From positions 24,429-88,428 of the forward strand of contig CAYWJR010000001.1 in assembly GCA_964458615.1 (NCBI GenBank): a DNA stretch of 64,000 nt. The letters run 5' to 3'. Shown one piece after another: positions 7,711 to 60,508 of the stretch. How positions within the stretch are numbered: the first letter of the stretch is position 1; each line of letters opens with the position of its first letter. Origin of the DNA: an uncultured Alphaproteobacteria bacterium (lineage in GTDB: Bacteria > Pseudomonadota > Alphaproteobacteria > SHNJ01). The translations under genes were made by a program, and so were the position numbers. The notes beneath the pieces are model-generated. The model worked only from the letters and a program-made list of their open reading frames with translations, was not told where the DNA came from and did not search any database.

Positions 7711-7740
7711 TTTTTCTTTTATTAACGGCTTGATTTTCAT

Positions 7741-7763
7741 GGTATGTTATATTATAACATTTC
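7741..7763. promoter_or_regulatory. Zur-box-like palindrome (candidate zinc uptake regulator operator) in front of znuCBA.
   Basis: Perfect 17-bp palindrome ATGTTATA-T-TATAACAT within ggtATGTTATATTATAACATttc. It resembles the proteobacterial Zur consensus GAAATGTTATANTATAACATTTC and overlaps the first in-frame ATG (7744) of the znuC ORF. Confidence 0.55.
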
Positions 7764-7764
7764 C

Positions 7765-33647: not shown

Positions 33648-36362
33648 ATGAGCAGATCCAGGCTTCCAGCAGCAATCGAAAAAAAAGATTGCGGTTTATT
33701 GCCGCCCCGAATTTTTGATAATTCCGGGATCGTTGCCGTTGTAACAGATTCCGAAAATATAATTACCGATTGCAATCAAGCCGCCACCGATTTTTTCTCG
33801 CAAAATCATAACGACTTAGCAGGGGAAAATTTGCTGGCTCTGATCGACAATGGCGACAGAATATTTATCGAAAGCCTGGCCGCCAAAATAATCGATGGAA
33901 GCAAAAAAAATATCCAGTTAGAAAAACCGGTAATGGTTATATCCGAATCCGGATTCCAGGAAAAATGGATCCGCATCGATTGCAATATTTATGGATCAGA
34001 CAATAAATATCTTATCTATTTAATTCAGGATATTACCGCGCAACAAAAATCCGCAATCAAAGAAAAACAAACGGAAAAGAATCTAAACAATATTTTGTCC
34101 GCCATGGCGGATGGTTTTTTATTATTCGACTCCAACGGCCAATTGTTGGATTTCAGCCCGTCTATACACGATCTGTTTCCGCAAGTGCAGCAAAGCCTGA
34201 TCCCCAAAATGCATATCGCCGAGGTGTATAGCAAAATTATATACTCGCAAAATATAATTGACGCGCTTGATAACGAACAAACTTATTTACAAGAATGGCA
34301 AACCAAACAGATAACCGGGTCGTACAAATTATTTTTCAAACATAAAAATCAGAAAAATTATCTGCTGCAATACCACCAATCTCCGAACCAATCTATTTTA
34401 ACATTTACCGACGTCACGATGATCCGGGAAAAAGAAACGTTGCTGGCCACATTGGCGTCGGAAAATTCGCATTTGTCCAAAGCGGTCGACGCCACCCAGG
34501 TCGGCATCGCCATTTGCGATGCGCGATTGCCGTTAAAACCAATTATATATTTCAACCACGCCTTTCATACAATCGTCGGGCACGCCGCCGAGAAAGTAAT
34601 CGGCGAGAATATCGGTGTTTTATTCAATGCCGAAAGCGACCAAACGGCGATACGGCAAATCGAATCAGCATTGGAAAACAACGCCGTCGCGGACGTTGAA
34701 ACGAAAGCGGTCGACGCAGGCCACCGGACATTTTGGTGCCATATTCAAATCAATCCGATTATCGACGTAACGGGAATTTGCACCCATTTTGTTTTGATGC
34801 TGACCGACATCAGCCGGCGCAAAAATCAAGAACAGGAATTGATTCAGGCAAAGCGCGCCGCCGATGAGGCAAACAAGGCGAAATCCCAATTCCTTGCGAT
34901 TATGAGCCATGAAATCAAAACACCTATCAATGGCGTTATGGGCATGGTCGATTTATTGATGACATCGAATCCAAATGAAAAGCAGCAGCAATTTTTATCC
35001 ACGGCGAAAGAATCAGCCGGAAAATTGCTTGGACTTGTAAACGATATTCTGGATTATTCGGATTTGGAATCGAACCATTTGGCCATAAAACCGAAACCGG
35101 TGGATTTAAACGAATTGATACGCCGGTCATTGGCCGACATCAAAGAAGACGCGTTTAAAAAGAATCTAAGCCTGCAATTTTTGCTGGATCCCAAAATACC
35201 CAAAAAATTGTATGGCGACCCGGATCGTATTGCCCAAATCGTGCGCAATATTGTCGGAAATTCAATTAAATTTACCGAACGCGGCCATATCGAAGTACAT
35301 CTAAATCTGCTTTCGGAAACAAACAAAACGGCAAAATTGCAATTGAAAATCATCGATACAGGAATTGGAATTGCGCCGGACAAACTAAATTCCATTTTCG
35401 ATCCGTTTCACCAAATCGATTTATCGTTTACCAGAAAATACAGCGGCACCGGTCTTGGGCTTGCGATCTGCAAAAAACTGCTACAATTGATGCACGGCGA
35501 CATCAGCGCCAAAAGCACGCTTGGATCAGGCACAACGATCAATTGCACGCTGTCCCTGCCCCTGCACCCGCCGGAACATAGTGTAAATGGAAATTCAGAA
35601 GGCAAAACAACCAATAAAAAGAAAATATTGATTGTCGACGACAGCATGACAAACCGTATGATCCCGGCCAGCTTGCTGCGACCTTATGGATTTGAAATTC
35701 ACGAAGCCGATGGCGGAAAAAAAGCCATCGATCTGGCATCGACCCACGATTACGATTTGATATTGATGGATATTGCCATGCCCGAAATCGACGGCATCGC
35801 GGCGACACGCGCCATTATATCCGCAAAACCTGGGCGCCAGGTAAAAATAATCGCCATTACCGCGCATTCGTCGGAACAGGAAAAAACCAAATGCATTCGC
35901 GCCGGGATGATCGATTATTTAACCAAACCGGTTGATAAAGAAAAGTTATTGGCGGCCTGTTTTAACGTTATGAATATTTCATTTAAAAACGGTGGTGTCA
36001 TGGAAAACAAAAATATGTTGGATGAAACGATATTGCACCAATTGGAAAACGATATTGGCGATAAAACATTGCGAACATTGCTGGATGCGTTTATCGAAGA
36101 AACCGTGGAGCGGTTAAAATTGATCCGCCAATTCAGCCGCGAACAAAAATGGGAATATTTGGGCCGCGAAGGCCACACGTTAAAATCCACCAGTGGCAGT
36201 TTCGGACTTATGACGTTATGCGATAAATCATCGCAATTGGATGAATTGTGCCGCACGCAAAATTACATCCAGGCTGAACTGACCGCGGCGGAAATCGCCA
36301 ATATGGGCGGCGAATGCATCGGAACATTGCGCAAATGGATGGTGGAAAAACTGCCTAATTAA
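33648..36362 (+). CDS. Hybrid sensor histidine kinase/response regulator with PAS domains, HisKA, HATPase, receiver and C-terminal Hpt domain (tripartite ArcB/BarA/TorS-like architecture).
   Basis: H-box LAIMSHEIKTPINGV. G boxes (DTGIGIA, GTGLGLAICKKL). REC (ILIVDDSMTNR...LILMDIAMPEIDG...TKP). Hpt (HTLKSTSGSFG). Confidence 0.85.
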   Translation: MSRSRLPAAIEKKDCGLLPPRIFDNSGIVAVVTDSENIITDCNQAATDFFSQNHNDLAGENLLALIDNGDRIFIESLAAKIIDGSKKNIQLEKPVMVISESGFQEKWIRIDCNIYGSDNKYLIYLIQDITAQQKSAIKEKQTEKNLNNILSAMADGFLLFDSNGQLLDFSPSIHDLFPQVQQSLIPKMHIAEVYSKIIYSQNIIDALDNEQTYLQEWQTKQITGSYKLFFKHKNQKNYLLQYHQSPNQSILTFTDVTMIREKETLLATLASENSHLSKAVDATQVGIAICDARLPLKPIIYFNHAFHTIVGHAAEKVIGENIGVLFNAESDQTAIRQIESALENNAVADVETKAVDAGHRTFWCHIQINPIIDVTGICTHFVLMLTDISRRKNQEQELIQAKRAADEANKAKSQFLAIMSHEIKTPINGVMGMVDLLMTSNPNEKQQQFLSTAKESAGKLLGLVNDILDYSDLESNHLAIKPKPVDLNELIRRSLADIKEDAFKKNLSLQFLLDPKIPKKLYGDPDRIAQIVRNIVGNSIKFTERGHIEVHLNLLSETNKTAKLQLKIIDTGIGIAPDKLNSIFDPFHQIDLSFTRKYSGTGLGLAICKKLLQLMHGDISAKSTLGSGTTINCTLSLPLHPPEHSVNGNSEGKTTNKKKILIVDDSMTNRMIPASLLRPYGFEIHEADGGKKAIDLASTHDYDLILMDIAMPEIDGIAATRAIISAKPGRQVKIIAITAHSSEQEKTKCIRAGMIDYLTKPVDKEKLLAACFNVMNISFKNGGVMENKNMLDETILHQLENDIGDKTLRTLLDAFIEETVERLKLIRQFSREQKWEYLGREGHTLKSTSGSFGLMTLCDKSSQLDELCRTQNYIQAELTAAEIANMGGECIGTLRKWMVEKLPN

Positions 36363-38488
36363 GGCGTTTGAACTATTGTTCGTTCTTTGGGCATGTGGAT
36401 CGTAACCTTGGTTCCTTGATTCAGTCCGCTTTCCAAAATAATCGTGCCGCCGTGCATTTCCACCAGCGATTTGGTAATCGGCAACCCAAGCCCTGTTCCT
36501 TTGTATCTGCGGCTAATTTGGCTGTCGACTTGAATGAACGGCTCCATGGCGCGCGCAATGCTGTCGGGTTCCATGCCCACGCCATGATCCTGTATCGAAA
36601 CCGAAATCCCCATATCTTCGCGCAGCCAAAATTTAATTTCTATGCTGCCGCCGTCGCTGCTGAATTTTACCGCATTCGATACCAAATTGGTGAATATTTG
36701 CGTCATCGCGCGTTCATCCGCGTTCAATTTCGGCAAATTCTGCGGCATATCGATAAACAACTGAATGCCCGCGTTTTGCATTTCAATTTCAACGAAACTT
36801 TGTACCCGCGCCAATATATCGCTTAGAACCAATGGCGTGCTATTCAAATCCAGCTTGCCTTCTTCCATTTTGGACAGATCCAGAATGTCTTTGATCAAAT
36901 TCAACAAATGCTGACCGCTTTTGAAAATATGTTCCGAATATTCGACATATTTCGCATTGCCCAATGCGCCTAAAATTTGCGTTTGCATCGCTTCGGAAAA
37001 ACCCATAATGGCGTTTAACGGCGTGCGCAATTCATGGCTTACATTGGCCAGAAACCGGGATTTCGTCTTACTGGCCATCAACGCCGCATCTTTGGCCGTA
37101 CGCATTTCCTTGACCGCCTTTTCCCGTTTTTGGGTTTCGGAATTGAATTTATCAAGGATCATATTGTATTGCATGGCGATCGTGCCCGCCTCTGTTTCCT
37201 GCTCGACATCGACAGGGCGAGTAAAATCGCCCTCTTGGCGTTGGCGTTCCATTTCCTGCAATAATTTAAACAACGACGTATTCGCGCCATGTTCCGCCAC
37301 GTTTAATCCGATGCGTTCGGATTCGGGGTCGACGCGCAGCGCGAAAAACCGGTCGATTACCGCCAAACAAATGAATCCGACGGTGAAAGAATATGCACCG
37401 ATACTGACGATACCCAAAAATTGTACGCCCAATTGTTCCATGCGGGTAAGGCCGGAATCGAATGCCGTTGTCGGCGCGAATAACGCAACCGCCAACGTAC
37501 CCCAAATCCCCGCGAATAAATGCGCGGGAACGGCATTGATAACATCGTCGATTTGCAATTTTAACAATAATTCGCAGCCCGCATAACACACCATCGCGCC
37601 GATCATGCCGATAATGATCGCTGCATATGGCGTAATAACATGCGCGCATGCCGATATACTAACCAATCCAGCGACAACGCAACTGATCGATCGGATGACG
37701 TTTGGCCGGCCTTTAAAATGCCAAGATAACGCCAATGCGGTCAAACCGCCAATCGCGCCGCCCAATGCCGTATTCAAAATAACCAATGGCACATCGCCGG
37801 TGAATTGGGGCAACGACCCGCCGGTAAATCCGAACCAGCCCACCCACAACAACATCAATCCCAATGTCGCTTTGGGTAAATCGCTGCCTTCGATTTCGGT
37901 GCCTTGCGGGCCGAACCGGCCGATGCGCGGCCCGATAATAATCAATGCCGCCAGCGCCATCCAGCCGCCGACCGAGTGAACCACGGTCGATCCCGCGAAA
38001 TCGATGAATCCCAAACTGACCAGCCAGCCGGAACTGGTATCCGGAATCGACCCCCCCCACGCCCAATGGCCGGCGACGGGATAAATCAATCCTGATAAGA
38101 TGCAGGAACAAAACACATAACCGGTAAAACGGATCCGTTCGGCCACAGCGCCCGAAACGATGGTGGTGGCAATGGCGCAAAACGCCATCTGGAAAAGAAA
38201 GAAAGAATACAGCCACGAAGATGCGGTATCGCCGAATACAAAATAACTTCCGCCTATTATGCCGTTTTGGCTGGCGCCAAACATAATGCCAAACCCAAAC
38301 AGCCAGAATAACAAAGACGCGATACAAAAATCGACGACGTTCTTACCGGCGACATGGATGCTGTTTTTCGCGCGCACCAATCCGCTTTCAAGGCAAGTAA
38401 AACCCGCCTGCATCATGATGACCAGAATGGCGCAGAAAACCAGCCAGAAAATATCGAAATATTCGGATAAACCTTCTACCAAAATCAA
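36359..38488 (-). CDS. Ammonium transporter (Amt) domain fused to a histidine kinase (Amt-HK sensor).
   Basis: N-terminal ~400 aa is a typical Amt/MEP channel (about 11 TM helices; ...DFAGSTVVHSVGGWMALAALIIIGPRIGRF...). This is followed by an H-box (LANVSHELRTPLNAIMGFSE) and an HATPase_c domain (GTGLGLPITKSLVEMHGG). No receiver domain. 4-nt convergent overlap with the hybrid kinase. Confidence 0.8.
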   Translation of the reverse strand: MILVEGLSEYFDIFWLVFCAILVIMMQAGFTCLESGLVRAKNSIHVAGKNVVDFCIASLLFWLFGFGIMFGASQNGIIGGSYFVFGDTASSWLYSFFLFQMAFCAIATTIVSGAVAERIRFTGYVFCSCILSGLIYPVAGHWAWGGSIPDTSSGWLVSLGFIDFAGSTVVHSVGGWMALAALIIIGPRIGRFGPQGTEIEGSDLPKATLGLMLLWVGWFGFTGGSLPQFTGDVPLVILNTALGGAIGGLTALALSWHFKGRPNVIRSISCVVAGLVSISACAHVITPYAAIIIGMIGAMVCYAGCELLLKLQIDDVINAVPAHLFAGIWGTLAVALFAPTTAFDSGLTRMEQLGVQFLGIVSIGAYSFTVGFICLAVIDRFFALRVDPESERIGLNVAEHGANTSLFKLLQEMERQRQEGDFTRPVDVEQETEAGTIAMQYNMILDKFNSETQKREKAVKEMRTAKDAALMASKTKSRFLANVSHELRTPLNAIMGFSEAMQTQILGALGNAKYVEYSEHIFKSGQHLLNLIKDILDLSKMEEGKLDLNSTPLVLSDILARVQSFVEIEMQNAGIQLFIDMPQNLPKLNADERAMTQIFTNLVSNAVKFSSDGGSIEIKFWLREDMGISVSIQDHGVGMEPDSIARAMEPFIQVDSQISRRYKGTGLGLPITKSLVEMHGGTIILESGLNQGTKVTIHMPKERTIVQTP

Positions 38489-38546: not shown

Positions 38547-39533
38547 TTAAGCCGTTTTTTTAAATTTTTCATTCCTGGCTTGTTGCAGTTTAACAAAATC
38601 GTCGCCAGCATGGTACGAAGAACGGGTCAATGGCGACGATGAAATCATCAAAAATCCTTTGCCCCTGCCCGCTTGCGCCAGCGATTCGAATTCATCCGGC
38701 GTGACAAAACGGTCAACGGCAATATGTTTTACGGTCGGTTGCAAATATTGCCCGATCGTCATGAAATCGACATCGGCGGCGCGCAAATCGTCCATCACCT
38801 GGCCGACTTCTTCCTTGGTTTCACCCAACCCGACCATGATGCCGGATTTGGTGAATATCGTCGGATCGATTTCTTTTACCCGCGACAGCAATTGCAAGCT
38901 GGCGAAATACCGCGCGCCGGGACGAACGGTTGGGTATAAGCGCGGCACGGTTTCCAAATTATGGTTGAACACATCGGGTTTGGCGCGGGCGACAATTTCA
39001 ATCGCTCCTTCTTTGCGCAAAAAATCGGGCGTTAAGATTTCAATCGTGGTTTTAGGCGACAACATGCGGATTTTGCGGATCGTTTGGGCAAAATGTTCCG
39101 CGCCGCCATCATCCAAATCGTCGCGATCCACAGATGTTACCACCACATGGCTAAGCCCCAGTTTTTGAACAGCCAACGCGACATTGTCCGGTTCATGCGG
39201 ATCCAATTTATCCGGCCGGCCAGTCGCCACGTTGCAAAATGAACAAGCACGCGTGCAAACCGATCCCAAAATCATAAACGTCGCATGTTTTTGCGACCAG
39301 CATTCGCCGATATTCGGGCACGCGGCTTCTTCGCAAACGGTGCGCAAATTCAAATCGCGCATCAATTCCTTGGTTTCATGATAAGTTTTCGATGTCGGCG
39401 CCTTTACACGGATCCAATCGGGTTTGCGTTGGATCGGATTGTCCGGGCGATGCGCTTTTTCTGGATGGCGCAGTGCAGCCTTGTTTGGCTCGGATTCAGG
39501 ACTGGAATCGGTAATTTTATTGTCAAATGTCAT
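38547..39533 (-). CDS. lipA: Lipoyl synthase.
   Basis: Radical-SAM CxxxCxxC (CTRACSFC) plus the N-terminal auxiliary cluster cysteines ([12 protein letters not shown]). Confidence 0.95.
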
Positions 39534-39644: not shown

Positions 39645-40166
39645 TTATCTTAATAAGAAATAATGCCCGGCGATGAATCCAATCGGCGCACCGATCAACG
39701 GCCACCCCAAAATGACCCCCGCCCAAAGATCGCTTAGGAAAAATGCAAACCATTGTTGGGGCAACAACAAACTGAATATCAAGGCGAAGGATGCGATAAT
39801 TGCCGGGCAAAACGCAACCATCATCGTACTGATGGATAATGTGCGTATAATTTCACGTATTGGTTTGTGGCGCGTCACATATACAGATGGAATTAAAAAT
39901 ACCGCCACAACAAAAACACCGACGAAAAAACCGCCCACGAACCACATCAAATTGGATTCCATCAATTTCCAAGTCGCGCTTAGCGTTCCATAAAAACCGG
40001 GTTCAATCGATATAGATGGATCGAATATTTCCGCAATCGCGCTGCCCAGCGTATAAGGAACATACGCGATAAACCCGGCCAAAAACGATCCCCAAACCAA
40101 TCCAACAATGTAACGGCCAATATATTTTTTGGCGTCAGCGATTGTAATGTTGGGATTAATTGACAT
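39645..40166 (-). CDS. Hypothetical membrane protein (about 4 TM).
   Basis: Hydrophobic 173-aa ORF between lipA and lpdA. No family recognised. Confidence 0.45.
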   Translation of the reverse strand: MSINPNITIADAKKYIGRYIVGLVWGSFLAGFIAYVPYTLGSAIAEIFDPSISIEPGFYGTLSATWKLMESNLMWFVGGFFVGVFVVAVFLIPSVYVTRHKPIREIIRTLSISTMMVAFCPAIIASFALIFSLLLPQQWFAFFLSDLWAGVILGWPLIGAPIGFIAGHYFLLR

Positions 40167-40168
40167 TG

Positions 40169-41572
40169 TTAAAAATGAATCACCTTGCCGAATGCGTCCA
40201 ATGTCGATTCATGCATCATTTCCGACAATGTCGGATGCGGGAATATGGTGTGCATCAATTCGGCTTCGGTCAACTCGCCGGTCTTGGCGATGCCGAATCC
40301 TTGGATCATTTCGGTTACTTCGGCGCCGATCATGTGCGCGCCCAGCAATTCGCCGCTTTTTGCATCAAAAATAGTTTTCACCAAACCTTCGGGTTCGCCC
40401 AATGCAATCGCCTTGCCGTTACCCATGAACGGGAATCGCCCGACGCGTATTTCACGGCCCGATTCTTTGGCTTTTTTCTCGGTCCACCCGATGCTGGCGA
40501 TTTGCGGCATCGAATAGGTACAGCCCGGAATATTTTGTACATTCAACGGATGCACATCGTTCAGTCCGGCAATTTTTTCAACGCAAATTACGCCTTCGTG
40601 GCTGGCTTTGTGCGCAAGCCATGGCGCGCCGGTCAAATCGCCGATGGCGTATACGCCGGCCTCGGCGGTTTGCGCCCATTCATTGACGACGATATGAGTT
40701 TTTTCGACCTTGATTTTGGTATTTTCAATGCCCAAATTTTCGACATTCCCGACAATCCCGACGGCGGAAATCAAACGTTCCGCTTTTATTTCTTGGGATT
40801 TTCCGCCGACATCGACAGTCACGGAAACATCGTTTGTGGATTTTTTAACGCCCTTAACCGCAGCGCCCGTTAAAATCTTGATGCCTTGCTTTTCAAATTG
40901 CTTGCGCGCCATTTGGCTGATTTCTTCGTCTTCGGCCGGCAAAATCCGATCGACCATTTCAACCACTGTTACATCGCAACCAAGATTGCGGTAAAAACTG
41001 GCGAATTCGATACCAATCGCACCAGACCCGACGACCACAATCGATTTCGGCAAAGTTGTTGGCACCATCGCCTCGCGATACGACCAAATCAATTTTCCAT
41101 CCGGTTCCATTCCCGGAATGACCCGCGCCCGCGCGCCGGTCGCCAAAATGATGTGTTTTGCCTGCAAAGTCGCAACCGGTTTATTATCTTTGGAAACGGC
41201 CACAACTCCCTTGCCGGCCAATTTGCCGAATCCGTCAAAAACGGTTACTTTATTTTTTTTCAGCAAATGACCGATACCGCCGGATAATTTTTTCGCAACA
41301 TCGCGCGAACGGGCGACGATTTTTGTTATATCGACGGAAATTTTGCCCTCGATCTTGATGCCAAAATCGGCCGCATGCTGAATCATATGATGGGCTTCGG
41401 AACTGCGTAACAGTGCCTTGGTCGGGATACAGCCCCAGTTCAAACAAATGCCACCCAGGTGATTGGCCTCTACCAATGCGACTTTCATTTTCAGCTGGCT
41501 GGCGCGAATCGCCGCCACATACCCGCCGGGTCCGCCGCCAATTACAATCAGATCGAAATTATGTTCAGCCAT
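40169..41572 (-). CDS. lpdA: Dihydrolipoyl dehydrogenase (E3).
   Basis: FAD motif GGGPGGYVAA. Redox-active disulfide GGICLNWGCIPTK. NAD-binding GSGAIGIE. C-terminal HPTLSE. Confidence 0.9.
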   Translation of the reverse strand: MAEHNFDLIVIGGGPGGYVAAIRASQLKMKVALVEANHLGGICLNWGCIPTKALLRSSEAHHMIQHAADFGIKIEGKISVDITKIVARSRDVAKKLSGGIGHLLKKNKVTVFDGFGKLAGKGVVAVSKDNKPVATLQAKHIILATGARARVIPGMEPDGKLIWSYREAMVPTTLPKSIVVVGSGAIGIEFASFYRNLGCDVTVVEMVDRILPAEDEEISQMARKQFEKQGIKILTGAAVKGVKKSTNDVSVTVDVGGKSQEIKAERLISAVGIVGNVENLGIENTKIKVEKTHIVVNEWAQTAEAGVYAIGDLTGAPWLAHKASHEGVICVEKIAGLNDVHPLNVQNIPGCTYSMPQIASIGWTEKKAKESGREIRVGRFPFMGNGKAIALGEPEGLVKTIFDAKSGELLGAHMIGAEVTEMIQGFGIAKTGELTEAELMHTIFPHPTLSEMMHESTLDAFGKVIHF

Positions 41573-41575
41573 AGA

Positions 41576-42730
41576 TTACATCGCCCCTGTTAAATATTCG
41601 TATTTGCCGTTATTCCATTGATACATTTTGAAAAACGGAAATTTTAAATCGCCTTTTTCGTCGAATTCGATTTGTCCCAAAACGGTTTTAAATTTACCAT
41701 CCCGCAAAGCCGCGATAATTTTCGCGCTGTCCGATGCATTCGCCGATTTTGCAATCGCCTGCGCCGCCAATTGCACATTCGCATAAGAATATAATGTGAA
41801 TATTTCAGGCTTTATTTTACGGGACTGAAGCGATTTTATAACCGCGCCAGATGCCTTATCCTTGGTTGGATCCAAAGGCCCGGACATGACAAATCCATTG
41901 GCCGTTTTATTCGCAACCGACCAAAATTCCTGAACCATTGCGGCATCGCCGCCAATAAATTTTATTTTTAATTTGGCGTCCGCCGACTGACGGATGATCG
42001 AACCCGCCTCGATGGGGAATGTCGCGATCAACGCAACCGTGATTCCCTTGGATTTCAATTTGGTAACAAGCGATGAAAAATCTTTTTCGCCGGTCGAAAT
42101 CGTATCGTAAATGACTTCTTTGATTCCAGCCGCAGCCAGGTGTCCGCGCACGGCATCCGCCAATCCTTTGCCCCATGTCGTTTTATCGTGAATGATCGCG
42201 ATTTTTTCATCGGTCGTGTATTTACCCACGTAATCTTTGCCCGCATGCGATTCGCCCGGGGTTGCGAATTTTTTCAATATATAGGCGGCCAAAACCTCGC
42301 CTTGCTGATCGTCGCGGCCATAGGGGCGAAAAATATTTTTCATGCCGCGCTCGGTAATTTCCGGGTTGCTGGCAGTGGGTGTAATATTGGCGATGCCTTC
42401 ATCCGCTGTAACGCCCGAAGCCGCCATAAACGCGCCGGAACATGCAGGCCCGATGATTAACGCAGGCGATGCGCCAACCAACCGGTTGATGGCCAAAACC
42501 GCCTGTTTTGGATCGCACGCATCGTCTTCCAATTTGATGGCCAATTTTTCGCCCAAAACGCCACCCGATGCATTGATGTCGTCAACCGCGGCCTTGATCC
42601 CAGCCAAACTTTGTTCGCCCAAACTGGCGGCTGGCCCTGTCATGGGCAATGATACGCCGATTGTAATATCGGCGTGTGCGGAACAGACAAAAGCAAAAGA
42701 TAAAATTACGCCGATAATAAATTTTTTCAT
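41576..42730 (-). CDS. Branched-chain amino acid ABC transporter substrate-binding protein (LivJ/LivK family); orphan.
   Basis: Signal peptide MKKFIIGVILSFAFVCSAHA. PBP type-I fold motifs (GVSLPMTGPAASLG...IGPACSG). Start at 42730 chosen (TAATG junction with the upstream paralog). No cognate permease or ATPase genes nearby. Confidence 0.8.
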   Translation of the reverse strand: MKKFIIGVILSFAFVCSAHADITIGVSLPMTGPAASLGEQSLAGIKAAVDDINASGGVLGEKLAIKLEDDACDPKQAVLAINRLVGASPALIIGPACSGAFMAASGVTADEGIANITPTASNPEITERGMKNIFRPYGRDDQQGEVLAAYILKKFATPGESHAGKDYVGKYTTDEKIAIIHDKTTWGKGLADAVRGHLAAAGIKEVIYDTISTGEKDFSSLVTKLKSKGITVALIATFPIEAGSIIRQSADAKLKIKFIGGDAAMVQEFWSVANKTANGFVMSGPLDPTKDKASGAVIKSLQSRKIKPEIFTLYSYANVQLAAQAIAKSANASDSAKIIAALRDGKFKTVLGQIEFDEKGDLKFPFFKMYQWNNGKYEYLTGAM

Positions 42731-43827
42731 TACAACCCGCCATTCATCAATTGATAATCGCCGTCGATCCATTGATAAAATTTCCACAAAGGTTTAGTCA
42801 TATCGCCGTTTTTATCGAACGACACGGGACCAATCAAAGTATCGAATTCGGATGAATGCAGCGCAGCTACGATTTTAGACGATTCCGCCGACCCCGCCTT
42901 TTCTATGGCTTGTGCCATAACCTGCATCGAAGCGTACATATATAGCGTATATAATTCTGCCTTGCCTTTTTGCGCTTCGATTTGCTCGACCGCCTTGCGT
43001 CCGGCGTCATTTTGCCGTGGATCGAAAGGGCCGCTGAACACAACGCCCTCACCCAGTTTTCCAGCGACTTTCCAGAAATCGGCGTTTAGCAACGCATCGC
43101 CACCAATAAAAGCCGATTGCAGTTTTTGTTCCCGCGCCTGGCGCACCATCAATCCGGCTTCGACCGGAAACAGGCCCATGACCACCACGTCGATTTTTTC
43201 TTTTTTCATCCGGCTGATAGTGGCGCTGAAATCCTTGTCACCCAAATTCACGCTGTCGATCAAAACCGGTTTCACGCCGGATTTGACCAGCGCTGCGCGC
43301 ACATTATCGGTTAGGCTTTTGCCCCAGGCCTGTTTATCGTGCAATAGCGCGATACGTTTACCGGGATGGGTTTTCTGGATATATTGGTAGATAAATTCCG
43401 CCTGCTGGCTATCGCGGCCGTTCAATCTGGCCAGATTTTTCAACCCCCGCCCTGTCACGTCGGAATGGGTGGAAATCGTTACCTCGGGCAAGCCTTCCTC
43501 GGCGAAAATTTCCGATGCCGGGATTGTCGCCATGGAACATAGTGGCCCCAAAATCCCAGTCACGCCTAAAGACACCAAACGGTTCGCCGCTGCTACGCCT
43601 TGCTTGGCGTCGCACGCATCGTCTTCGTATACGACCTTGATTTTTTGGCCGCCTAGAACACCGGTTTTGTTGATTTCGGCAAGCGCGGCTTTGATCCCTT
43701 CCCGCGATTGTTCCCCAAATGCCGCCGCGCTTCCGGTCAATGGCGTGGAAACGCCGATCAAAATATCGGCTGAGGCTGGCGTGCATAGAAGAGAGAGCAA
43801 TAAGGTGGCGAATAGAATCTTTTTCAT
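42730..43827 (-). CDS. Branched-chain amino acid ABC transporter substrate-binding protein (LivJ/LivK family); paralog of the previous gene.
   Basis: Signal peptide MKKILFATLLLSLLCTPASA. Same family motifs (GVSTPLTGSAAAFG...LGPLCS). Tandem paralog. Confidence 0.8.
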   Translation of the reverse strand: MKKILFATLLLSLLCTPASADILIGVSTPLTGSAAAFGEQSREGIKAALAEINKTGVLGGQKIKVVYEDDACDAKQGVAAANRLVSLGVTGILGPLCSMATIPASEIFAEEGLPEVTISTHSDVTGRGLKNLARLNGRDSQQAEFIYQYIQKTHPGKRIALLHDKQAWGKSLTDNVRAALVKSGVKPVLIDSVNLGDKDFSATISRMKKEKIDVVVMGLFPVEAGLMVRQAREQKLQSAFIGGDALLNADFWKVAGKLGEGVVFSGPFDPRQNDAGRKAVEQIEAQKGKAELYTLYMYASMQVMAQAIEKAGSAESSKIVAALHSSEFDTLIGPVSFDKNGDMTKPLWKFYQWIDGDYQLMNGGL

Positions 43828-43857: not shown

Positions 43858-44754
43858 TTAAACCATCATCAAAAACGGCTCTTCGATAAAGCCTTTGAAT
43901 GCTTGCAACCATTCCGCGCCAACCGAACCGTCAATCGCCCTGTGGTCAACCGACAACGTGCATGTCATTACCGTCGCAACGGTCAATTCGCCATCGCGCA
44001 CGATTGGGCGTTGTTCGCCCTGCCCAACGGCCAAAATTGCAGCCTGCGGCGGATTGATGATCGCGGCAAAATCCTTGATGCCGAACATGCCCAAATTCGA
44101 AATGCTGAATGAACCGCCGGTATATTCTTCGGGCATCAATTTTCCGGCCTTGGCGCGTTCAGCCAGGGATTTCATTTCTACCGAAATATCCTTGAATCCC
44201 TTGCGGTCTGCGGCGCGAATAATCGGCGTGATCAGGCCGCCGGGAATTGCCACCGCAACCGAAATATCGGCCTGATTATATTTCAACATGCCTTCGTCCG
44301 ACCAGGACACATTGGCATTCGGCACCTTGATCAACGCGCTGGCGCAGGCCTTGATGATCAAATCGTTGACCGATAATTTGACGCCGTCGGATTCCAGTTT
44401 TTTATTCAAACGCACGCGCATGTCCAGCAACGCATCCAATTGACAATCCACGGTCAGATAAAAATGCGGTACGGTTTGTTTCGATTCGGTCAGGCGTTTG
44501 GCAATCACCTTGCGCATCATCGAATGCGGTTCAACGGTAAATGCCGCCTGCGGCAAATTACCGGGCGCGGACATTACCAGCGATTTATTTTGCGCGATTG
44601 GCGATGCGCCGCCGCGCGCGGATTCGACATCATGGCGCACAATGCGCCCGCGCGGACCCGTGCCGGTGATGCCGGATAAATCCACGCCCATTTGTTTGGC
44701 CAAACGTTTGGCCAGGGGCGATGCGATGATGCGTTGTTGGTTGGAATGCAACAT
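43858..44754 (-). CDS. pdhC: Dihydrolipoamide acyltransferase E2 core of the pyruvate dehydrogenase complex, apparently lacking an N-terminal lipoyl domain.
   Basis: Begins directly with the peripheral subunit-binding domain (IIASPLAKRLAKQMGVDLSGITGTGPRGRIVRHDVE), then the 2-oxoacid dehydrogenase acyltransferase catalytic domain (...SVDHRAIDGS...). The ATG is 1 nt after the pdhB stop, so no room for a lipoyl domain. Confidence 0.75.
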   Translation of the reverse strand: MLHSNQQRIIASPLAKRLAKQMGVDLSGITGTGPRGRIVRHDVESARGGASPIAQNKSLVMSAPGNLPQAAFTVEPHSMMRKVIAKRLTESKQTVPHFYLTVDCQLDALLDMRVRLNKKLESDGVKLSVNDLIIKACASALIKVPNANVSWSDEGMLKYNQADISVAVAIPGGLITPIIRAADRKGFKDISVEMKSLAERAKAGKLMPEEYTGGSFSISNLGMFGIKDFAAIINPPQAAILAVGQGEQRPIVRDGELTVATVMTCTLSVDHRAIDGSVGAEWLQAFKGFIEEPFLMMV

Positions 44755-44755
44755 G

Positions 44756-46135
44756 TTATTTCCCCAAAACTTGTTTCACGGCGTCGATTACATCCGAAAC
44801 TTGCGGCAGGCTCATCGCCTCTAAATTCGCGGCATATGGCAATGGCACATCCTTGCCCGTCACACGAATCAATGGCGCGTCCAGTTCATCGAACGCTTGT
44901 TCCATAATCACGGCGGCGATTTCGGAACCGATCCCGGCATATGGCCAGCCTTCTTCCAATGAAATAATATGATTGGTTTTACGCACCGATTCGATAATCG
45001 TCGCGGTATCCAGCGGACGCAACGTGCGCAGATTGATAACTTCGCAACTAATCCCTTCGGATTCCAATTGCTCGGCGGCTTTTAATGCCAAACCGACGGG
45101 ACGCGAGAATGCAATGATGGTTACATGTTGACCCACGCGTTCGATTTTCGCCTGGCCGATTGGAACAGTGAAATCCTTGTCGGTAGGGCATGGGAATGAT
45201 TGGCCGTACATAATTTCGTTTTCCAAAACCACAACCGGATTCGGATCGCGGATGGCCGATTTCATCAAACCTTTCGCGTCTTCGGCGGAATAAGGCGCGA
45301 CGACTTTTAATCCTGGGCAATGCGCATACCATGACGCATAACATTGCGAATGCTGCGCCCCCACGCGCGCGGCGGCGCCATTTGGGCCGCGAAACACAAT
45401 CGGGCAACCCAATTGGCCGCCCGACATATATAACGTTTTCGCAGCGGAGTTAATGATTTGATCGATCGCCTGCATCGAAAAATTCATGGTCATGAATTCG
45501 ACAATCGGTTTCAATCCCAAAAAGGCCGAGCCGACCGCAAGACCCGCGAATCCATGTTCGGTGATTGGCGTGTCGATCACGCGTTTTGCGCCGAATTCAT
45601 CCAACAATCCTTGGGATACTTTGTACGCGCCATTATATTCCGCGACTTCCTCGCCCATCAAAAATACTTTTTCATCGGCACGCATTTCCTCCGCCATCGC
45701 TTCGCGCAATGCCTCTCGCACGGTTTTGATTTCGGTCGGGCCGGTATAGGCGCTTGGCGCCGGTGCGGCGGCAACCGTTTGTTTCGGCGCGGATGATGCG
45801 GATTTATTCACAACAATATCGGATTTTGGCGCCTGGGTAGCCGGTTTTGGCGCGGCATGCGTGCCATTGGTTTTAATCGCGCCGGCGTCTTCGCCTTCTT
45901 CCAATAACACCGCAATAGGCGTGTTCACCGCAACGCCTTGGGATCCGGCATTGATCAGGATTTTACCGATTACGCCTTCATCGACTGCCTCGACTTCCAT
46001 AGTCGCTTTGTCGGTTTCGATTTCCGCGATCACTTCGCCGGGCTTTACCTTGTCGCCCTCTTTTTTATGCCATTTGGCCAGGTTTCCCTCGGTCATGGTT
46101 GGCGATAATGCAGGCATTAAAATTTGGATGGGCAT
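44756..46135 (-). CDS. pdhB: Pyruvate dehydrogenase E1 beta subunit with N-terminal lipoyl domain (alphaproteobacterial type).
   Basis: N-terminal lipoyl domain ([22 protein letters not shown]...[10 protein letters not shown]), Ala/Pro linker, then the transketolase-like E1-beta body. Confidence 0.9.
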
Positions 46136-46147
46136 TTATTATTTTCC

Positions 46148-46585
46148 TTATCTTGCTAAATAATTTCTGCTGGCGTCTGGTGTTAAAAAACTGAGGCGTA
46201 CAATTTTTTCATCAGGATTAGGCACACGAGCAAATTTAATCGCGGTTGTTGCAACAACAGGCGGCGCTATGATTGCTACGCCGCCTCCCGAATCCTCATG
46301 GGCTTCATCCGGGCACTCAGTTATTATATGCTCATCTTGATCATCTAAATCGGCTAAAAACTGACCTATGGGAACGTGACTAATATCGAAGTCTGCCTCT
46401 GCCAATTCTACCCATACCGTTACTTTTTGCCCGTTATCACGGTTCAAAAAAGATAATGAGCCGGGAAAACTACTTGCGAATTTAGCCGCGTCTGGAAACA
46501 ATTCCGCATGAAGATGAAATACGGTTTTTGATCCAGCCGCAATCGAATCGAATATTTCTCTTCCTACGGAAAAAGCCACTGCCAT
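46148..46585 (-). CDS. Hypothetical acidic protein (145 aa) inserted between pdhA and pdhB.
   Basis: ORF tightly packed in the operon (start 4 nt before the pdhA stop). No family recognised. Confidence 0.45.
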   Translation of the reverse strand: MAVAFSVGREIFDSIAAGSKTVFHLHAELFPDAAKFASSFPGSLSFLNRDNGQKVTVWVELAEADFDISHVPIGQFLADLDDQDEHIITECPDEAHEDSGGGVAIIAPPVVATTAIKFARVPNPDEKIVRLSFLTPDASRNYLAR

Positions 46586-46588
46586 ATG

Positions 46589-47617
46589 TTACGCAGCCTC
46601 CACTAAAATATCGGTATATAATTCGCTGGCATCCGGTTCCGGCGAAGTTTGCGCGAAATCGGCGGCATCGTTGACGATGATTTTGATCTCCGCTTCGATT
46701 TTTTTGAAATCGGCTTCGGTCGCCATTTTATTTTTTTCCAGATAATTACGCAAATTGCCGATCGGATCGTTTTTGTCACGATAAGATTCGACTTCTTCTT
46801 TGCTGCGGTATTTTCCGGGATCCGACATCGAATGGCCGCGGTAACGGTATGTGACCATTTCCATCAAATATGGCCCCTTGCCGCTGCGCACATGTTCGAC
46901 TGCCTTTAATCCCGCTTCGCGCACGGCCATAACATTCATACCATCGACCGACACGCCGGGAATTCCGTATCCATAACCGCGTTGCGCCAACCCCGGCCCC
47001 GCCGCCGCGCGAGCGCACGACGTGCCCATGCCATATTTATTATTTTCGATAATATACAAAACCGGCAATTTCCAAAGTGCGGCCATATTGAATGCCTCGT
47101 ACACCTGCCCTTGGTTTGCGGCGCCATCGCCCATGTAACAAACATTGATGCCGCCATCGTCGTTATATTTATGCGCGAACGCCAAACCGGTACCCAGCGG
47201 CACTTGTGCCCCAACGATACCGTGGCCGCCGTAAAATCCTTTTTCTTTCGAAAACATATGCATCGATCCGCCCTTGCCCTTGGAATAACCGCCGATGCGC
47301 CCGGTTAATTCTGCCATCACGCCGCGCGATTCCATACCGCAAGCCAACATGTGACCATGATCGCGGTACGCGGTAATCACTGTGTCTTGCGGTTTCTGAC
47401 AAGATTGCAAACCGACCACCACGGCTTCTTGGCCAATATATAAATGACAGAAACCGCCGATTAAACCCATGCCGTATAACTGGCCGGATTTTTCTTCGAA
47501 CCGCCGGATCAACAACATGTCGCGGTAAAATTGCATTAACATTTTTTTGTCCGGCGTTTTGGACGAAACGGATGCCGGTTTGGAATTGGTTTTGGATTTA
47601 TTTTTATTCTTAGCCAT
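46589..47617 (-). CDS. pdhA: Pyruvate dehydrogenase E1 alpha subunit.
   Basis: TPP-binding fold (GDGAANQG). Phosphorylation-loop-like YRYRGHSMSDPG motif. Confidence 0.9.
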   Translation of the reverse strand: MAKNKNKSKTNSKPASVSSKTPDKKMLMQFYRDMLLIRRFEEKSGQLYGMGLIGGFCHLYIGQEAVVVGLQSCQKPQDTVITAYRDHGHMLACGMESRGVMAELTGRIGGYSKGKGGSMHMFSKEKGFYGGHGIVGAQVPLGTGLAFAHKYNDDGGINVCYMGDGAANQGQVYEAFNMAALWKLPVLYIIENNKYGMGTSCARAAAGPGLAQRGYGYGIPGVSVDGMNVMAVREAGLKAVEHVRSGKGPYLMEMVTYRYRGHSMSDPGKYRSKEEVESYRDKNDPIGNLRNYLEKNKMATEADFKKIEAEIKIIVNDAADFAQTSPEPDASELYTDILVEAA

Positions 47618-47769: not shown

Positions 47770-48582
47770 TTATCCGAATAACCGAACGCGATCATGCGGG
47801 TTATCGGATCTTCCGGCAATTGGCTGTCTTGTTTGAAACATTGCCAAACAATCCCATTTTGCGTAATCGGCGTCTATTGGCGCGCTCAAGACATCGTGGA
47901 TCTTAATGATGTCTTGCAACGATTCGAACGCCGCATAACACAATGCCTTTATTCCCGCTGGCGCGATTGTATTTTCAACCTGCCAAATCGATTTTAATTC
48001 GCCGGATCTTTTATTCAAACTGACCGAATCCAAAGCAGGCGGGCGGTATTCCGTGATTGGGTCCAGTATTTTCCAGCTATCGGCGTAATCACCCGCCCTG
48101 CCAGTCATGCAATGACGATACAAATCCGCCTGAATCTGCTTTATTGATGCAATTCTTTGCCCTGCCAAATCGAATGTATCTATCCATTTCGGTACAACCG
48201 CATCGACCAATTCAGAATCTTTGGCCGAGGTTTTGGACAAAGTATTATCATGATCCGACAGATATTCCGCCCCAACCATGACATAACGCACGGCGCGATT
48301 CATAAAATTGATCATTTCCGGCGAATATGCCGCGCCGGTTTGCGTATGGCGTTGCCGCAGATGCAAAATAGTTGCGGCGCAAGCGGAAATCAATTGACCA
48401 TGTTCGTAGTCATGCAAGGCCGACGATTCAAAATCAGTAATTAAATTTTCAAGATTCGCGAAAATAATCGGCGGAACATCATTTTTAGAAAACAATTGGG
48501 CATAAGCCAATTGAAATGAAAATCCCAAATTGTTGTACGCTTGGTCGATTGTTTCAGATGGTGTGCGCGCCCGCCCGGTCAT
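47770..48582 (-). CDS. Hypothetical protein (270 aa).
   Basis: ORF; second gene of a two-gene minus-strand unit. No family recognised. Confidence 0.5.
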   Translation of the reverse strand: MTGRARTPSETIDQAYNNLGFSFQLAYAQLFSKNDVPPIIFANLENLITDFESSALHDYEHGQLISACAATILHLRQRHTQTGAAYSPEMINFMNRAVRYVMVGAEYLSDHDNTLSKTSAKDSELVDAVVPKWIDTFDLAGQRIASIKQIQADLYRHCMTGRAGDYADSWKILDPITEYRPPALDSVSLNKRSGELKSIWQVENTIAPAGIKALCYAAFESLQDIIKIHDVLSAPIDADYAKWDCLAMFQTRQPIAGRSDNPHDRVRLFG

Positions 48583-48594
48583 CGGCCAAATCCT

Positions 48595-49368
48595 TTATGC
48601 GGCGCGGCGGCGCCATGATGGTTTGATTTCCAGCAATACAACAGGCGGCAATTGCAATTCAGCGCGCTGTAAATTTTTTGGCAACGGCGATGCAACCGAT
48701 TGTTCCATGCGCAATACCGCTCCCGCCGCCTCGGTGACATAATAAGCCACCAAACGAAACGGTTCCGCCGCCGCGTTTTCAATTGGAAAAATATTTTTTG
48801 CCGATTGCATCAATTCAACAAAATCATTGTTCTTGGCCGCGTCCGACAATGTCACAGATCCCATATACCGCATATGTTCAACAGTTTGAAATTCCGCGTC
48901 ATTCAATCGCGCCACAATCGATGTGCCGACGCCGTTGGCCGCCTTTAATGCCAAATCCAGACGGAAAAACGTACCGCGTTGCGGCCAGTCGGGCAAGGAT
49001 TCGGAAATTTGTTTCATCGCGCGGTCGATTTTCAATTGATGTTTGGTCGGCATATGTCCGTTTTGACTGGCGCGTTCGGCAATCGATTCCACCATGGCAT
49101 AGGCCGCATCCATCAAAACCAAGGATCGAAAACTGACTGGTTTGGCATTGCGGCGGCGCGCCAAAATAAATTCCGAACACGCCTGCGCCAGATTACCCAT
49201 GGATGCCGCCGAAAATTGATCCGGGAATTCTTCGGCGCGTTGCGTAATATCGCGTATGGTCTTTAAATGACGGCTTGCGGGCGGGCTAAAACTGCCTGGA
49301 TTGGTTTTTCCTGCCTGTTCGGTTAAAAACATCAATGCGTTTTCAAATATTTCCATCTTGCCCCTCAA
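48595..49368 (-). CDS. Hypothetical protein (257 aa).
   Basis: ORF; first gene of a two-gene minus-strand unit, 12-nt gap to the next gene. No family recognised. Confidence 0.5.
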   Translation of the reverse strand: MRGKMEIFENALMFLTEQAGKTNPGSFSPPASRHLKTIRDITQRAEEFPDQFSAASMGNLAQACSEFILARRRNAKPVSFRSLVLMDAAYAMVESIAERASQNGHMPTKHQLKIDRAMKQISESLPDWPQRGTFFRLDLALKAANGVGTSIVARLNDAEFQTVEHMRYMGSVTLSDAAKNNDFVELMQSAKNIFPIENAAAEPFRLVAYYVTEAAGAVLRMEQSVASPLPKNLQRAELQLPPVVLLEIKPSWRRRAA

Positions 49369-56747: not shown

Positions 56748-58094
56748 TTACCGTTCCGTCAGGGCATTATGTTTTGCTTTGAAAAACGGTTTCAACAAAT
56801 AATCCAAAACCGTTTTCGATCCCGTCAACACGTCCACCTGGGCGGTCATGCCGGGAATAATAGGCAGGCTTTTGGTGTTGCCCTTGAACGTGTTGCCATA
56901 GGTACGCAATTTTACCAGATAAAAACTTTCCCCGCGTTCGTCGACGATAGTATCGGGGGAAATATGTTCTACTTTTGCTTTTAAACCGCCATAAATCGAA
57001 AAATCATAAGCGGTAATTTTCACCATGGCTTCTTGATCCGGGCGGATAAAGGCGATGTCGGATGGGCGGATTTTCGCCTCGACCAGCAAATTATCTTCGA
57101 TCGGAACGACCTCGACCAAATCTTCGCCGGGCTTTATGACGCCGCCGACGGTGTTAATTTTGATTTGTTTAACGGTTCCTTTTAATGGGGAACGCACTTC
57201 GGTTCTGGCCACCCGGTCGCGCGATGCCGTTATGCTTTGGGTCAATGCGTTTAACTCGCCGCGCTTTTGATTCAATTCATTCGATACTTCGGAACGGAAA
57301 GTTTGTTTTTTATCCTCTACCCTTTGGCGCGCTTCTTCCATCGCAACGCGGGCGCGCGGTTGCGCTGCCTTGGCCTGGTTCATGCGCGATTCCAATTCGG
57401 TAATTTCGCGTTCGATGCTTAGCAGTTCCATACGCGATGTAACGCCTTGTTGCACGCCCTTGCTGGCGATTTCTTTTTGTTGATACGCAACATCCAGGGA
57501 TTTTTTGGTGCTCTCGGCGCTGGTGTATAATTCGGACAATTCCTGTTGTTTCTGTGAAACCTGCGATTGGAAAATATCCAACTGGCCGCGCAATTGCGAT
57601 TGGCGCGATTGGTAAAGCGCCATTTCGCTTTTTACCGCATCGGATGCTTCGTCAATAACTTCTTTTGGGAATGCCAATGGCTTGCCTTCGTATTCCGCGT
57701 TCAGGCGCGATATAGTCGCAATCAACGACAAATATTTGCTGCGCGCCGTTTTATAATCCGCCTGCGCATAGGTATTGTCGATGATCAGCATCACTTCGTC
57801 TTTTTCGACCATCTGGCCTTCGCGAACCAGGATTTTGTTGATAATGCCGCCCTCCAGGTTCGATACGACCTGAATATGGCTCGAGGTGATGATTTTCCCC
57901 TGCCCGCGCGTTACTTCGTCGACGCTGGCAAAAGCAGCCCACAGCAAGAACACCACAAAGAATAAACTGATACACAAAAGCAATATATGCGAAGCCATGC
58001 GCGCGCCGCGATGCGATGCCGCGAATCTCTCCGGCATAAAATCGGTTTCTTCTTCGTGCACCCGCAAATATTCTTTGGCAATTTCTTTTAACAT
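56748..58094 (-). CDS. hlyD: Type I secretion system membrane fusion protein (HlyD family).
   Basis: N-terminal TM anchor, long coiled-coil, lipoyl-like and beta-barrel regions typical of HlyD. Immediately downstream of the ABC exporter. Confidence 0.85.
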   Translation of the reverse strand: MLKEIAKEYLRVHEEETDFMPERFAASHRGARMASHILLLCISLFFVVFLLWAAFASVDEVTRGQGKIITSSHIQVVSNLEGGIINKILVREGQMVEKDEVMLIIDNTYAQADYKTARSKYLSLIATISRLNAEYEGKPLAFPKEVIDEASDAVKSEMALYQSRQSQLRGQLDIFQSQVSQKQQELSELYTSAESTKKSLDVAYQQKEIASKGVQQGVTSRMELLSIEREITELESRMNQAKAAQPRARVAMEEARQRVEDKKQTFRSEVSNELNQKRGELNALTQSITASRDRVARTEVRSPLKGTVKQIKINTVGGVIKPGEDLVEVVPIEDNLLVEAKIRPSDIAFIRPDQEAMVKITAYDFSIYGGLKAKVEHISPDTIVDERGESFYLVKLRTYGNTFKGNTKSLPIIPGMTAQVDVLTGSKTVLDYLLKPFFKAKHNALTER

Positions 58095-58116
58095 TCTATT
58101 CCTCGGTTTCCGACCG

Positions 58117-60339: not shown

Positions 60340-60446
60340 GTAATTCTCCCTATCCTATTGAATATAGAGAAAACACCCCAAATTGGTAAGAAGGAAGTAG
60401 CAATTGGGTGCAATAGCCAAAATATAGTTTCCTAATTGCTACTGAA

Positions 60447-60480
60447 CAATACAAAGAAAGAGCACCGCTTTCGCGGTGCT
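60447..60480 (-). terminator. Intrinsic terminator downstream of the RTX gene.
   Basis: Hairpin agcaccgc-tttc-gcggtgct, followed on the minus strand by CTTTCTTTGTATTG. Confidence 0.45.
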
Positions 60481-60508
60481 GAGGTAGGTTCGGTAGAGAA
60501 AACTTGGA

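Follow-up and report, generated by a model that had tools for sequence, protein, structure and literature searches.

A pyruvate dehydrogenase operon of an uncultured alphaproteobacterium pairs an E2 without a lipoyl domain with an E1-beta that has one

Results

The pdh operon encodes an E2 that begins at the subunit-binding domain

We analyzed a stretch of 64,000 nucleotides from an uncultured alphaproteobacterium (contig CAYWJR010000001.1, positions 24,429 to 88,428; hereafter the window), and focused on an operon for a pyruvate dehydrogenase (PDH) complex whose E2 acetyltransferase lacks a lipoyl domain (LD) and whose E1-beta subunit carries one. All genes of this operon lie on the minus strand, and coordinates refer to positions in the window. 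Its first gene is pdhA (46589-47617), encoding an E1-alpha of 342 residues with a Pfam E1_dh match (E = 5.6e-102) and a score of 499 bits against NCBIfam TIGR03182 (cut-off 394). Downstream lie pdhB (44756-46135), which encodes an E1-beta of 459 residues with an N-terminal LD, and the gene for the LD-less E2, here called pdhC' (43858-44754; 298 residues). Further on are lpd (40169-41572), encoding a 467-residue E3 dihydrolipoyl dehydrogenase (Pfam Pyr_redox_2 and Pyr_redox_dim; TIGR01350, 556 bits against a cut-off of 409), and lipA (38547-39533), encoding a 328-residue lipoyl synthase (TIGR00510, 388 bits against a cut-off of 310; Pfam LIAS_N and Radical_SAM). lipA is found downstream of lpd in relatives too, and its place beside the operon fits a complex that depends on lipoyl groups.

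The short E2 consists of two recognizable parts. Pfam assigned E3_binding to residues 9-44, the peripheral subunit-binding domain (PSBD; 44623-44730; PF02817, E = 5.9e-17), and 2-oxoacid_dh to residues 71-297, the catalytic acyltransferase domain with its DHRxxDG motif (43864-44544; PF00198, E = 3.1e-84); no Biotin_lipoyl domain (PF00364) was found in the 298 residues, in agreement with a first-pass annotation of this DNA, which had described the protein as starting directly at the PSBD. The top NCBIfam model was TIGR01349, the equivalog for E2 of the pyruvate type (E2p). The match was restricted to profile positions 136-437, and the score of 409.3 bits stays below the cut-off of 445 because the first 135 profile positions are absent. 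The protein shares with E2p the catalytic domain with DHRxxDG, the PSBD and the position in a pdhA-pdhB-pdhC-lpd operon, and lacks the N-terminal LD with its lipoyl-lysine. Across PSBD and catalytic domain it is 59-63% identical to full-length alphaproteobacterial E2p. H271, D275 and SISNLG do not vary among short and full-length E2s, nor do the PSBD residues R8, P13, L14, A15, R17, G33, P34, G36, R37 and I38. Automatic annotation under-calls such LD-less E2s: the score falls below the equivalog cut-off, and the label may read "hypothetical protein", as it does for the short E2 of one relative.

Immediately upstream of pdhC' there is no room for a lost N-terminus. The pdhB stop codon and the E2 start codon are separated by a single nucleotide (TAA-C-ATG, 44752-44758), as previously noted, with a Shine-Dalgarno-like GGGGA motif upstream. 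In the E2 frame a stop lies seven codons before the ATG, another five fall within 50 codons, and an alternative frame of the same DNA is the intact pdhB, which bears out the earlier statement that no coding space exists for an E2 LD. A tblastn search with LD queries (E<1e-3) returned exactly one LD in the window, and no second LD was detected in the window or in the flanks of the related loci described below; the search covered 64 kb of the window genome and up to ~20 kb per relative locus. A frameshift or hidden LD was considered and rejected, given six stops in ~50 upstream codons and the single LD in the window.

E1-beta carries the LD of the operon

The one LD match in the window occupies residues 1-80 of PdhB (45896-46135). 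Pfam placed Biotin_lipoyl at residues 4-77 (E = 2.8e-19), followed by Transket_pyr and Transketolase_C, and the model for the LD-bearing E1-beta family, NF008854 (PRK11892), scored 786 bits (cut-off 454) over profile positions 1-462 of 464, so that the N-terminal LD seen in the first pass stands. The lipoyl-lysine motif reads ETDKATME, and K43, whose AAA codon lies at 46007-46009, is the predicted lipoyl-lysine. We found the conservation of this residue to be complete: D42, K43 and A44 are invariant in a 36-sequence alignment. The same ETDKATME occurs in 114 of 117 other PdhB LDs, and all 120 PdhB homologues listed, including the 13 clusters of close relatives that we term clade 1, matched PF00364.

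We modeled PdhB with AlphaFold2 (AF2) from the 36-sequence alignment (mean predicted local distance difference test score, pLDDT, 78). The model shows an all-beta LD at residues 1-80 (pLDDT 78-91) with K43 in the turn joining strands 35-40 and 45-49. An Ala/Pro-rich flexible linker follows at residues 81-134 (45734-45895), modeled as disordered with pLDDT <50 for residues 88-127, and the E1-beta core begins at residue 134. In clade 1 the linker spans 53-68 residues, and among other alphaproteobacteria 42-81 (median 57). A lengthened linker as compensation for the missing E2 arm was therefore rejected, no such effect being found. The first-pass annotation had called the function of this LD unclear, and indeed no experimental work on the LD of PdhB was found in the searchable literature.

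The arrangement is conserved among relatives

As the observation is architectural and not statistical, the relevant test is its conservation across independent assemblies. Searching with the short E2 returned 13 protein clusters, 66-100% identical to it and 295-302 residues long, all with PSBD and catalytic domain only, from NCBI, JGI, ENA and Logan assemblies with contigs of up to 651 kb; the next matches, at ≤63% identity, were full-length E2s with an LD. We inspected seven relative loci. All had a short E2 preceded by its own Shine-Dalgarno-like motif before the ATG, and the PdhB LD was present in every one with a visible PdhB N-terminus. The junction between pdhB and E2 varies: L001 (E2 87% identical to that of the window) has the same 1-nucleotide gap, and gaps of 3, 28 and about 100 nucleotides were seen in L085 (76%), L081 (82%) and L086 (83%). 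A GIY-YIG gene lies between the two genes in L084 (86%), and a binding-protein gene in L083 (66%). In L087 (76%; gap 6 nucleotides) the contig is too short for the PdhB N-terminus. A read-through fusion of PdhB and E2 was likewise considered and rejected on account of the relatives with 28 nucleotides, ~100 nucleotides or whole genes between the reading frames.

In neighbour-joining trees built from Kimura distances, the short-E2 loci were monophyletic in 200 of 200 bootstraps for E1-beta and in 154 of 200 for E2, suggesting a single ancestral loss of the E2 LD in clade 1. Divergence within the clade reaches down to 66% identity for E2 and 79% for E1-beta. Pairwise Nei-Gojobori estimates of the ratio of non-synonymous to synonymous substitution rates (dN/dS), which are saturated for the most distant pairs, were low for both proteins: the window and L001 differ in the PdhB LD by 20 synonymous and no non-synonymous substitutions, the comparison with L081 gave 0.06, and the E2 catalytic domain gave 0.05-0.17. 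Strong purifying selection acts on the short E2 as well as on the LD of PdhB.

Among the alphaproteobacterial loci examined, E2 without an LD is rare and was seen only together with an LD on PdhB

To place these loci in context, we compiled a census of other alphaproteobacterial loci with both genes complete, drawn from genome and metagenome collections. An LD on both PdhB and E2 was found at 67 loci of the genome collection and 51 of the metagenome collection, a few contigs occurring in both. Four loci lacked an intact PdhB LD and carried that of E2 only, and no locus outside the two clades described here carried an LD on PdhB alone. An LD-less E2 was never found in a locus with an LD-less PdhB. 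One of the four is the complete genome of Candidatus Endolissoclinum faulkneri L5 (L045), which encodes a PdhB of 338 residues without an LD and an E2 that has kept its own, with a non-coding gap of ~480 nucleotides at the expected PdhB LD-coding site (L045:6117-6600). L063 also lacks the PdhB LD, and in L016 and L050 the sequence before the E1-beta core gave only partial LD matches. Ca. Endolissoclinum faulkneri thus resembles the window in keeping one of two redundant LDs, but as its mirror image, having lost the PdhB LD and retained that of E2.

One locus served as a control for artefacts. In a nanopore metagenome-assembled genome (L060:7607-8882), the reading frame for the E2 LD (7607-8062) is out of frame with that for PSBD and catalytic domain (7713-8882), probably the result of a sequencing frameshift in the Ala/Pro-rich linker. 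Such cases show that frameshifted E2 genes do occur in metagenome-assembled genomes, and the two similar LD repeats of a normal operon could in principle confuse an assembler, so that the short E2 of the window might be an error of assembly, sequencing or gene calling, through a frameshift or a collapsed repeat. In L060, however, the LD-coding DNA is still there, whereas the junction in the window has none, pdhB ending one nucleotide before the ATG and the upstream frame being full of stops. The first-pass annotation had also raised a sequencing error or frameshift near 44755; this is excluded by the recurrence of the layout in at least 13 clusters from more than 10 independent assemblies of four sources, with differing junctions. 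We give practically no credence to an artefact.

A second clade lost the E2 LD independently

A scan of 1.84 billion representative proteins retrieved P0333, a protein of 307 residues that begins at the PSBD and is 53% identical to the short E2 of the window. It led to a second group of loci (clade 2; L167:1017-3268, L170:8667-10921 and L171:8670-10924; G+C content 31-36%) in which PdhB has an LD and E2 has none. The gene order, eno-ftsB-pdhA-pdhB(LD)-short E2-lpd-lipA, is the canonical Rhizobiales order, and each 20-kb locus contains a single LD. Clade 2 comprises 6 protein clusters, 74-100% identical and 302-312 residues long; its PdhB linkers are shorter (PdhB of ~438 residues), and its LD and E2, too, are under purifying selection (dN/dS 0.04-0.19). 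Three further short matches (P0298, P0302 and P0391) were uninformative, their contigs measuring 1.0-1.7 kb and offering hardly any upstream sequence or none, with P0302 and P0391 right at a contig end.

The nearest full-length relatives of the clade-2 E2 (57-63% identity) are the E2s of Bartonella and Ca. Tokpelaia, and the clade-2 E1-beta is 72-75% identical to Phyllobacteriaceae-like sequences and 58-61% to clade 1. Clades 1 and 2 were jointly monophyletic in 0 of 200 bootstraps for E1-beta and 3 of 200 for E2. Because the two clades are phylogenetically separate, the sequences indicate that the E2 LD was lost on at least two occasions, both in lineages with a PdhB LD, clade 2 being related to Bartonellaceae.

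Two further explanations were considered. One is that the operon no longer yields a working PDH, the short E2 having taken another role or being in decay. We consider this very unlikely: none of the five genes (pdhA, pdhB, E2, lpd and lipA) is disrupted and all are under purifying selection, the catalytic motifs do not vary, and the layout has been stable over deep divergence in two clades. The other is that the arm is encoded elsewhere, by a full-length E2p, a split-off LD gene or an E3-binding-protein-like protein, with the short E2 as a paralogue or mixed-core partner. Our view is limited to 64 kb here and to ~20 kb per relative, which leaves room for such a gene. Against it, the short E2 sits at the orthologous pdhC position in both clades, and the LD search brought up no second copy near any of these operons. 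In a redundant truncated copy, moreover, one would not expect the PSBD and the catalytic motifs to be preserved, with dN/dS of 0.05-0.19, despite divergence to 66% identity. Taken together, we regard an arm encoded elsewhere as quite improbable.

The PdhB LD is probably of an ordinary, constrained type

We then compared the LD of PdhB with those of E2. In genomes with two LDs (loci L002-L165), the PdhB and E2 LDs of the same genome share 65-98% identity (mean 81%) and can be told apart, weakly, at only some 3 alignment columns, which suggests concerted evolution or gene conversion between the copies. Relative to the E1-beta core, both LDs evolve at an equal rate, so that constraint on the LD is everywhere as strong in PdhB as in E2. 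In the window, the LD belongs to the E2p type and shares 65-86% identity with LDs of alphaproteobacterial E2p and PdhB. Within clade 1, the PdhB LD was marginally more conserved than elsewhere, by less than one standard deviation, and no clade-specific changes were found at conserved LD positions in either clade with an LD-less E2. Convergent substitutions shared by both clades numbered one position in E2, with 0.5 expected by chance, and none in the E1-beta core or the LD. On the simplest reading of these sequences, PdhB would bear, in all these bacteria, an LD of the ordinary E2p type under full constraint; the pair of LDs would be largely redundant, and therefore either could be lost.

Comparison with known 2-oxoacid dehydrogenase complexes

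The operon is organized like that of the Zymomonas-type alphaproteobacterial PDH, in whose E1-beta, too, an Ala/Pro linker joins an N-terminal LD to the E1-beta core. According to Neveling et al. (1998/1999), in the form in which that work is cited in PMC7873978, the complex of Zymomonas mobilis has an LD on E1-beta and keeps that of E2 as well. The two systems differ in that the Zymomonas-type E2 retains its own LD, whereas that of the window is gone, leaving the E1-beta LD as the only one of the operon. Canonical PDH complexes with a heterotetrameric E1 (Geobacillus stearothermophilus and mitochondria; PDB 3duf, 1w85, 7uom and 6ct0) have homologous E1-alpha and E1-beta, PSBD and core, but bear one or two LDs on E2 and none on E1-beta. 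The best PDB matches were mitochondrial 60-mer cores for the short E2 (E~1e-83) and human E1-beta for PdhB (E~1e-139); in the PDB search, no solved E1-beta chain spanned query residues 1-123 and none had an LD.

The PdhC of Mycoplasma hyopneumoniae, a member of the unrelated Mollicutes, reportedly lacks an LD, an observation attributed to Matic and colleagues in 2003. In this organism the LD sits on the E3 subunit, PdhD (Matic et al. 2003, Gene 319:99), and lipoylation was detected on that protein alone (Jin et al. 2021, PMC7873978). The likeness to the window is that the lipoyl arm is found on a peripheral subunit and not on E2. The carriers differ, being E3 in M. hyopneumoniae, whereas the candidate in the window is E1-beta, and Lpd has no LD: Pfam detected Pyr_redox domains only, TIGR01350 matched the protein end to end, and the N-terminal LD of the M. 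hyopneumoniae dihydrolipoyl dehydrogenase has no counterpart there. By analogy, this precedent suggests that an LD on a peripheral subunit can serve an LD-less E2. NCBIfam contains two models of LD-less E2s whose profiles begin at the subunit-binding region, NF008815 (PRK11857) and NF011416 (PRK14843). The short E2 of the window scored 128.6 bits (cut-off 378) and 203.6 bits (cut-off 429), respectively, and since both scores are far below the cut-offs, it does not belong to these families and its loss of the LD is independent of them. In the full-text literature searched, whose coverage stops short of subscription literature, an LD-less E2p paired with an LD-bearing E1-beta is not described.

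A different solution is known from the hybrid complex of PDH and 2-oxoglutarate dehydrogenase in Corynebacterium glutamicum. In PMC7568260 and PMC10415282, OdhA is described as carrying a catalytic domain of the 2-oxoglutarate type of E2 (E2o) without an LD, which uses the LDs of AceF and, according to PMC7568260 with reference to Hoffelder 2010, depends on the AceF lipoyl residues. As may be the case in the window, an E2-type catalytic domain is served there by LDs of another polypeptide. The OdhA catalytic domain, however, is fused to the E1 of 2-oxoglutarate dehydrogenase, has no PSBD and receives its LDs from another E2, whereas the E2 of the window is a free-standing protein of PSBD and catalytic domain, encoded by a separate reading frame with its own start (NF008907, 60 bits against 878), and its candidate LD lies on its own E1.

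The precedent of OdhA raises the possibility that the LD-less E2p core of the window borrows LDs in trans, from SucB or BkdB, and that the E1-beta LD is accessory or regulatory. Several observations make this unlikely. The LD of the operon is of the E2p type and is itself under strong purifying selection, and the short E2 keeps its own PSBD in its own operon with E1 and E3. E1 enzymes of pyruvate dehydrogenases (E1p), moreover, are known to be selective for their cognate LD. Finally, the loss occurred twice, each time in the company of a PdhB LD, and was never seen together with an LD-less PdhB.

Neighboring genes

Several other genes are interspersed with or adjoin the operon. The spacer between pdhA and pdhB contains a reading frame of 145 residues (46148-46585, minus strand), which gave no Pfam match even at E≤0.1 and no tblastn homologue in any other locus. 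We rejected it as a hidden subunit or LD, since it has no Pfam match, is unconserved and is replaced by something different in each relative; it probably lies outside the PDH complex. In clade 1, spacer reading frames occur at L001:5880-6593, L084:6800-8094, L081:8316-8588 and L083:1484-1729; they encode 80-237 residues, are mutually unrelated and have no Pfam match, and L085 and L086 have none. pdhA and pdhB abut in other alphaproteobacteria, e.g., in L060.

The interval between E2 and lpd holds two genes for LivJ-like periplasmic binding proteins (42730-43827 and 41576-42787, minus strand; Pfam Peripla_BP_6). Counterparts were found at L083:3130-4227, L084:10992-12092, L085:3748-4848 and L001:8924-11135; the gene precedes E2 in L083, follows it elsewhere and is absent from L081 and L086. 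Peripla_BP_6 genes within the pdh operon were seen only in clade 1, with none in ~155 other loci, and those in the operon have no adjoining transporter genes. They are hypervariable: the first of the window (BP1) shares 49% identity with the corresponding L001 protein, compared with 98% for E1-beta. The GIY-YIG endonuclease gene of L084 (105 residues; L084:9557-9874) lies exactly between pdhB and the short E2.

Upstream of pdhA, at 47770-49368, two reading frames of 270 and 257 residues without a Pfam family are 37% and 58% identical to their L001 counterparts, while the flanking pdh genes are 87-98% identical; both appear fast-evolving. Between lpd and lipA lies a reading frame of 173 residues (39645-40166, minus strand). 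lipA is adjoined by a gene for a 709-residue fusion of AmtB and a histidine kinase (36359-38488; Ammonium_transp, HisKA, HATPase_c), kept at the same position in L081, L083 and L085. A type I secretion cluster occupies 56748-63421, with an RTX protein of 970 residues containing 13 HemolysinCabind stretches (60509-63421), an ABC exporter (58117-60339) that includes a C39 peptidase domain, and an HlyD-family protein (56748-58094).

Discussion

In the textbook model of 2-oxoacid dehydrogenases, the lipoyl arm resides on the E2 core. Since an LD was discovered on the E1-beta of Zymomonas in the late 1990s, it has, to our knowledge, been unclear what this second LD of most alphaproteobacteria is for. 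The first-pass annotation had left two alternatives for the operon described here, an arm borne by E1-beta or a truncated E2 with a full-length E2 elsewhere; we favor the former, for reasons set out below, and have given the latter correspondingly little weight. The LD of E1-beta is, in our assessment, likely to be the acyl-carrying arm of this PDH complex. That it represents a natural PDH whose sole substrate-channeling arm is on E1-beta, and that this state arose at least two times when a two-LD ancestor lost the LD of E2, is a broader proposition, which we hold to be rather more probable than its converse.

Under this model, the swinging lipoyl arm would have shifted from the E2 core to the peripheral E1-beta. 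The alpha2-beta2 tetramer of E1 would dock on the PSBD of the LD-less E2 core, each tetramer supplying two LDs on flexible tethers of ~55 residues. The lipoyl-lysine of E1-beta would be reductively acetylated at the E1 active site, the arm would move to the E2 catalytic site, where the acetyl group would be passed to coenzyme A, and then to an E3 on a neighboring PSBD for re-oxidation. The E2 copy of the LD would have been lost once in the common ancestor of clade 1 and independently in the Bartonellaceae-related lineage.

Four lines of evidence argue for the arm on E1-beta: the short E2 occupies the canonical place in pdhA-pdhB-pdhC-lpd-lipA; strong selection has maintained both it and the PdhB LD; the layout has outlasted deep divergence within the clade; and it arose a second time, independently. 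Other considerations weigh against it. Both the lipoylation of K43 and the overall PDH activity are features that we infer from sequence. SucB is very likely encoded in these genomes, and a second E2p or a free-standing LD elsewhere could provide lipoyl groups in trans. The number of arms would follow the occupancy of the core by E1, which may limit the catalytic rate. A log-odds classifier placed the clade-1 LD between the PdhB and E2 types. Convergent compensatory substitutions were not found across the two clades, and nothing in the sequences marks a change of role.

The two independent losses amount to a natural knockout experiment. Since in two lineages the arm on E2 was dropped while strong selection preserved that on E1-beta, we argue that the latter is functional and sufficient, and the E2-borne arm of the textbook model looks dispensable. 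If this is correct, the E1-beta LD throughout Alphaproteobacteria would be a fully competent swinging arm, and the mechanism of 2-oxoacid dehydrogenases would not require an arm on E2. The number of arms would instead be set by E1 occupancy, at two per E1 tetramer, so that the stoichiometry and reach of the arms would have to be rethought, and the arrangement would be of relevance for the engineering of minimal PDH complexes.

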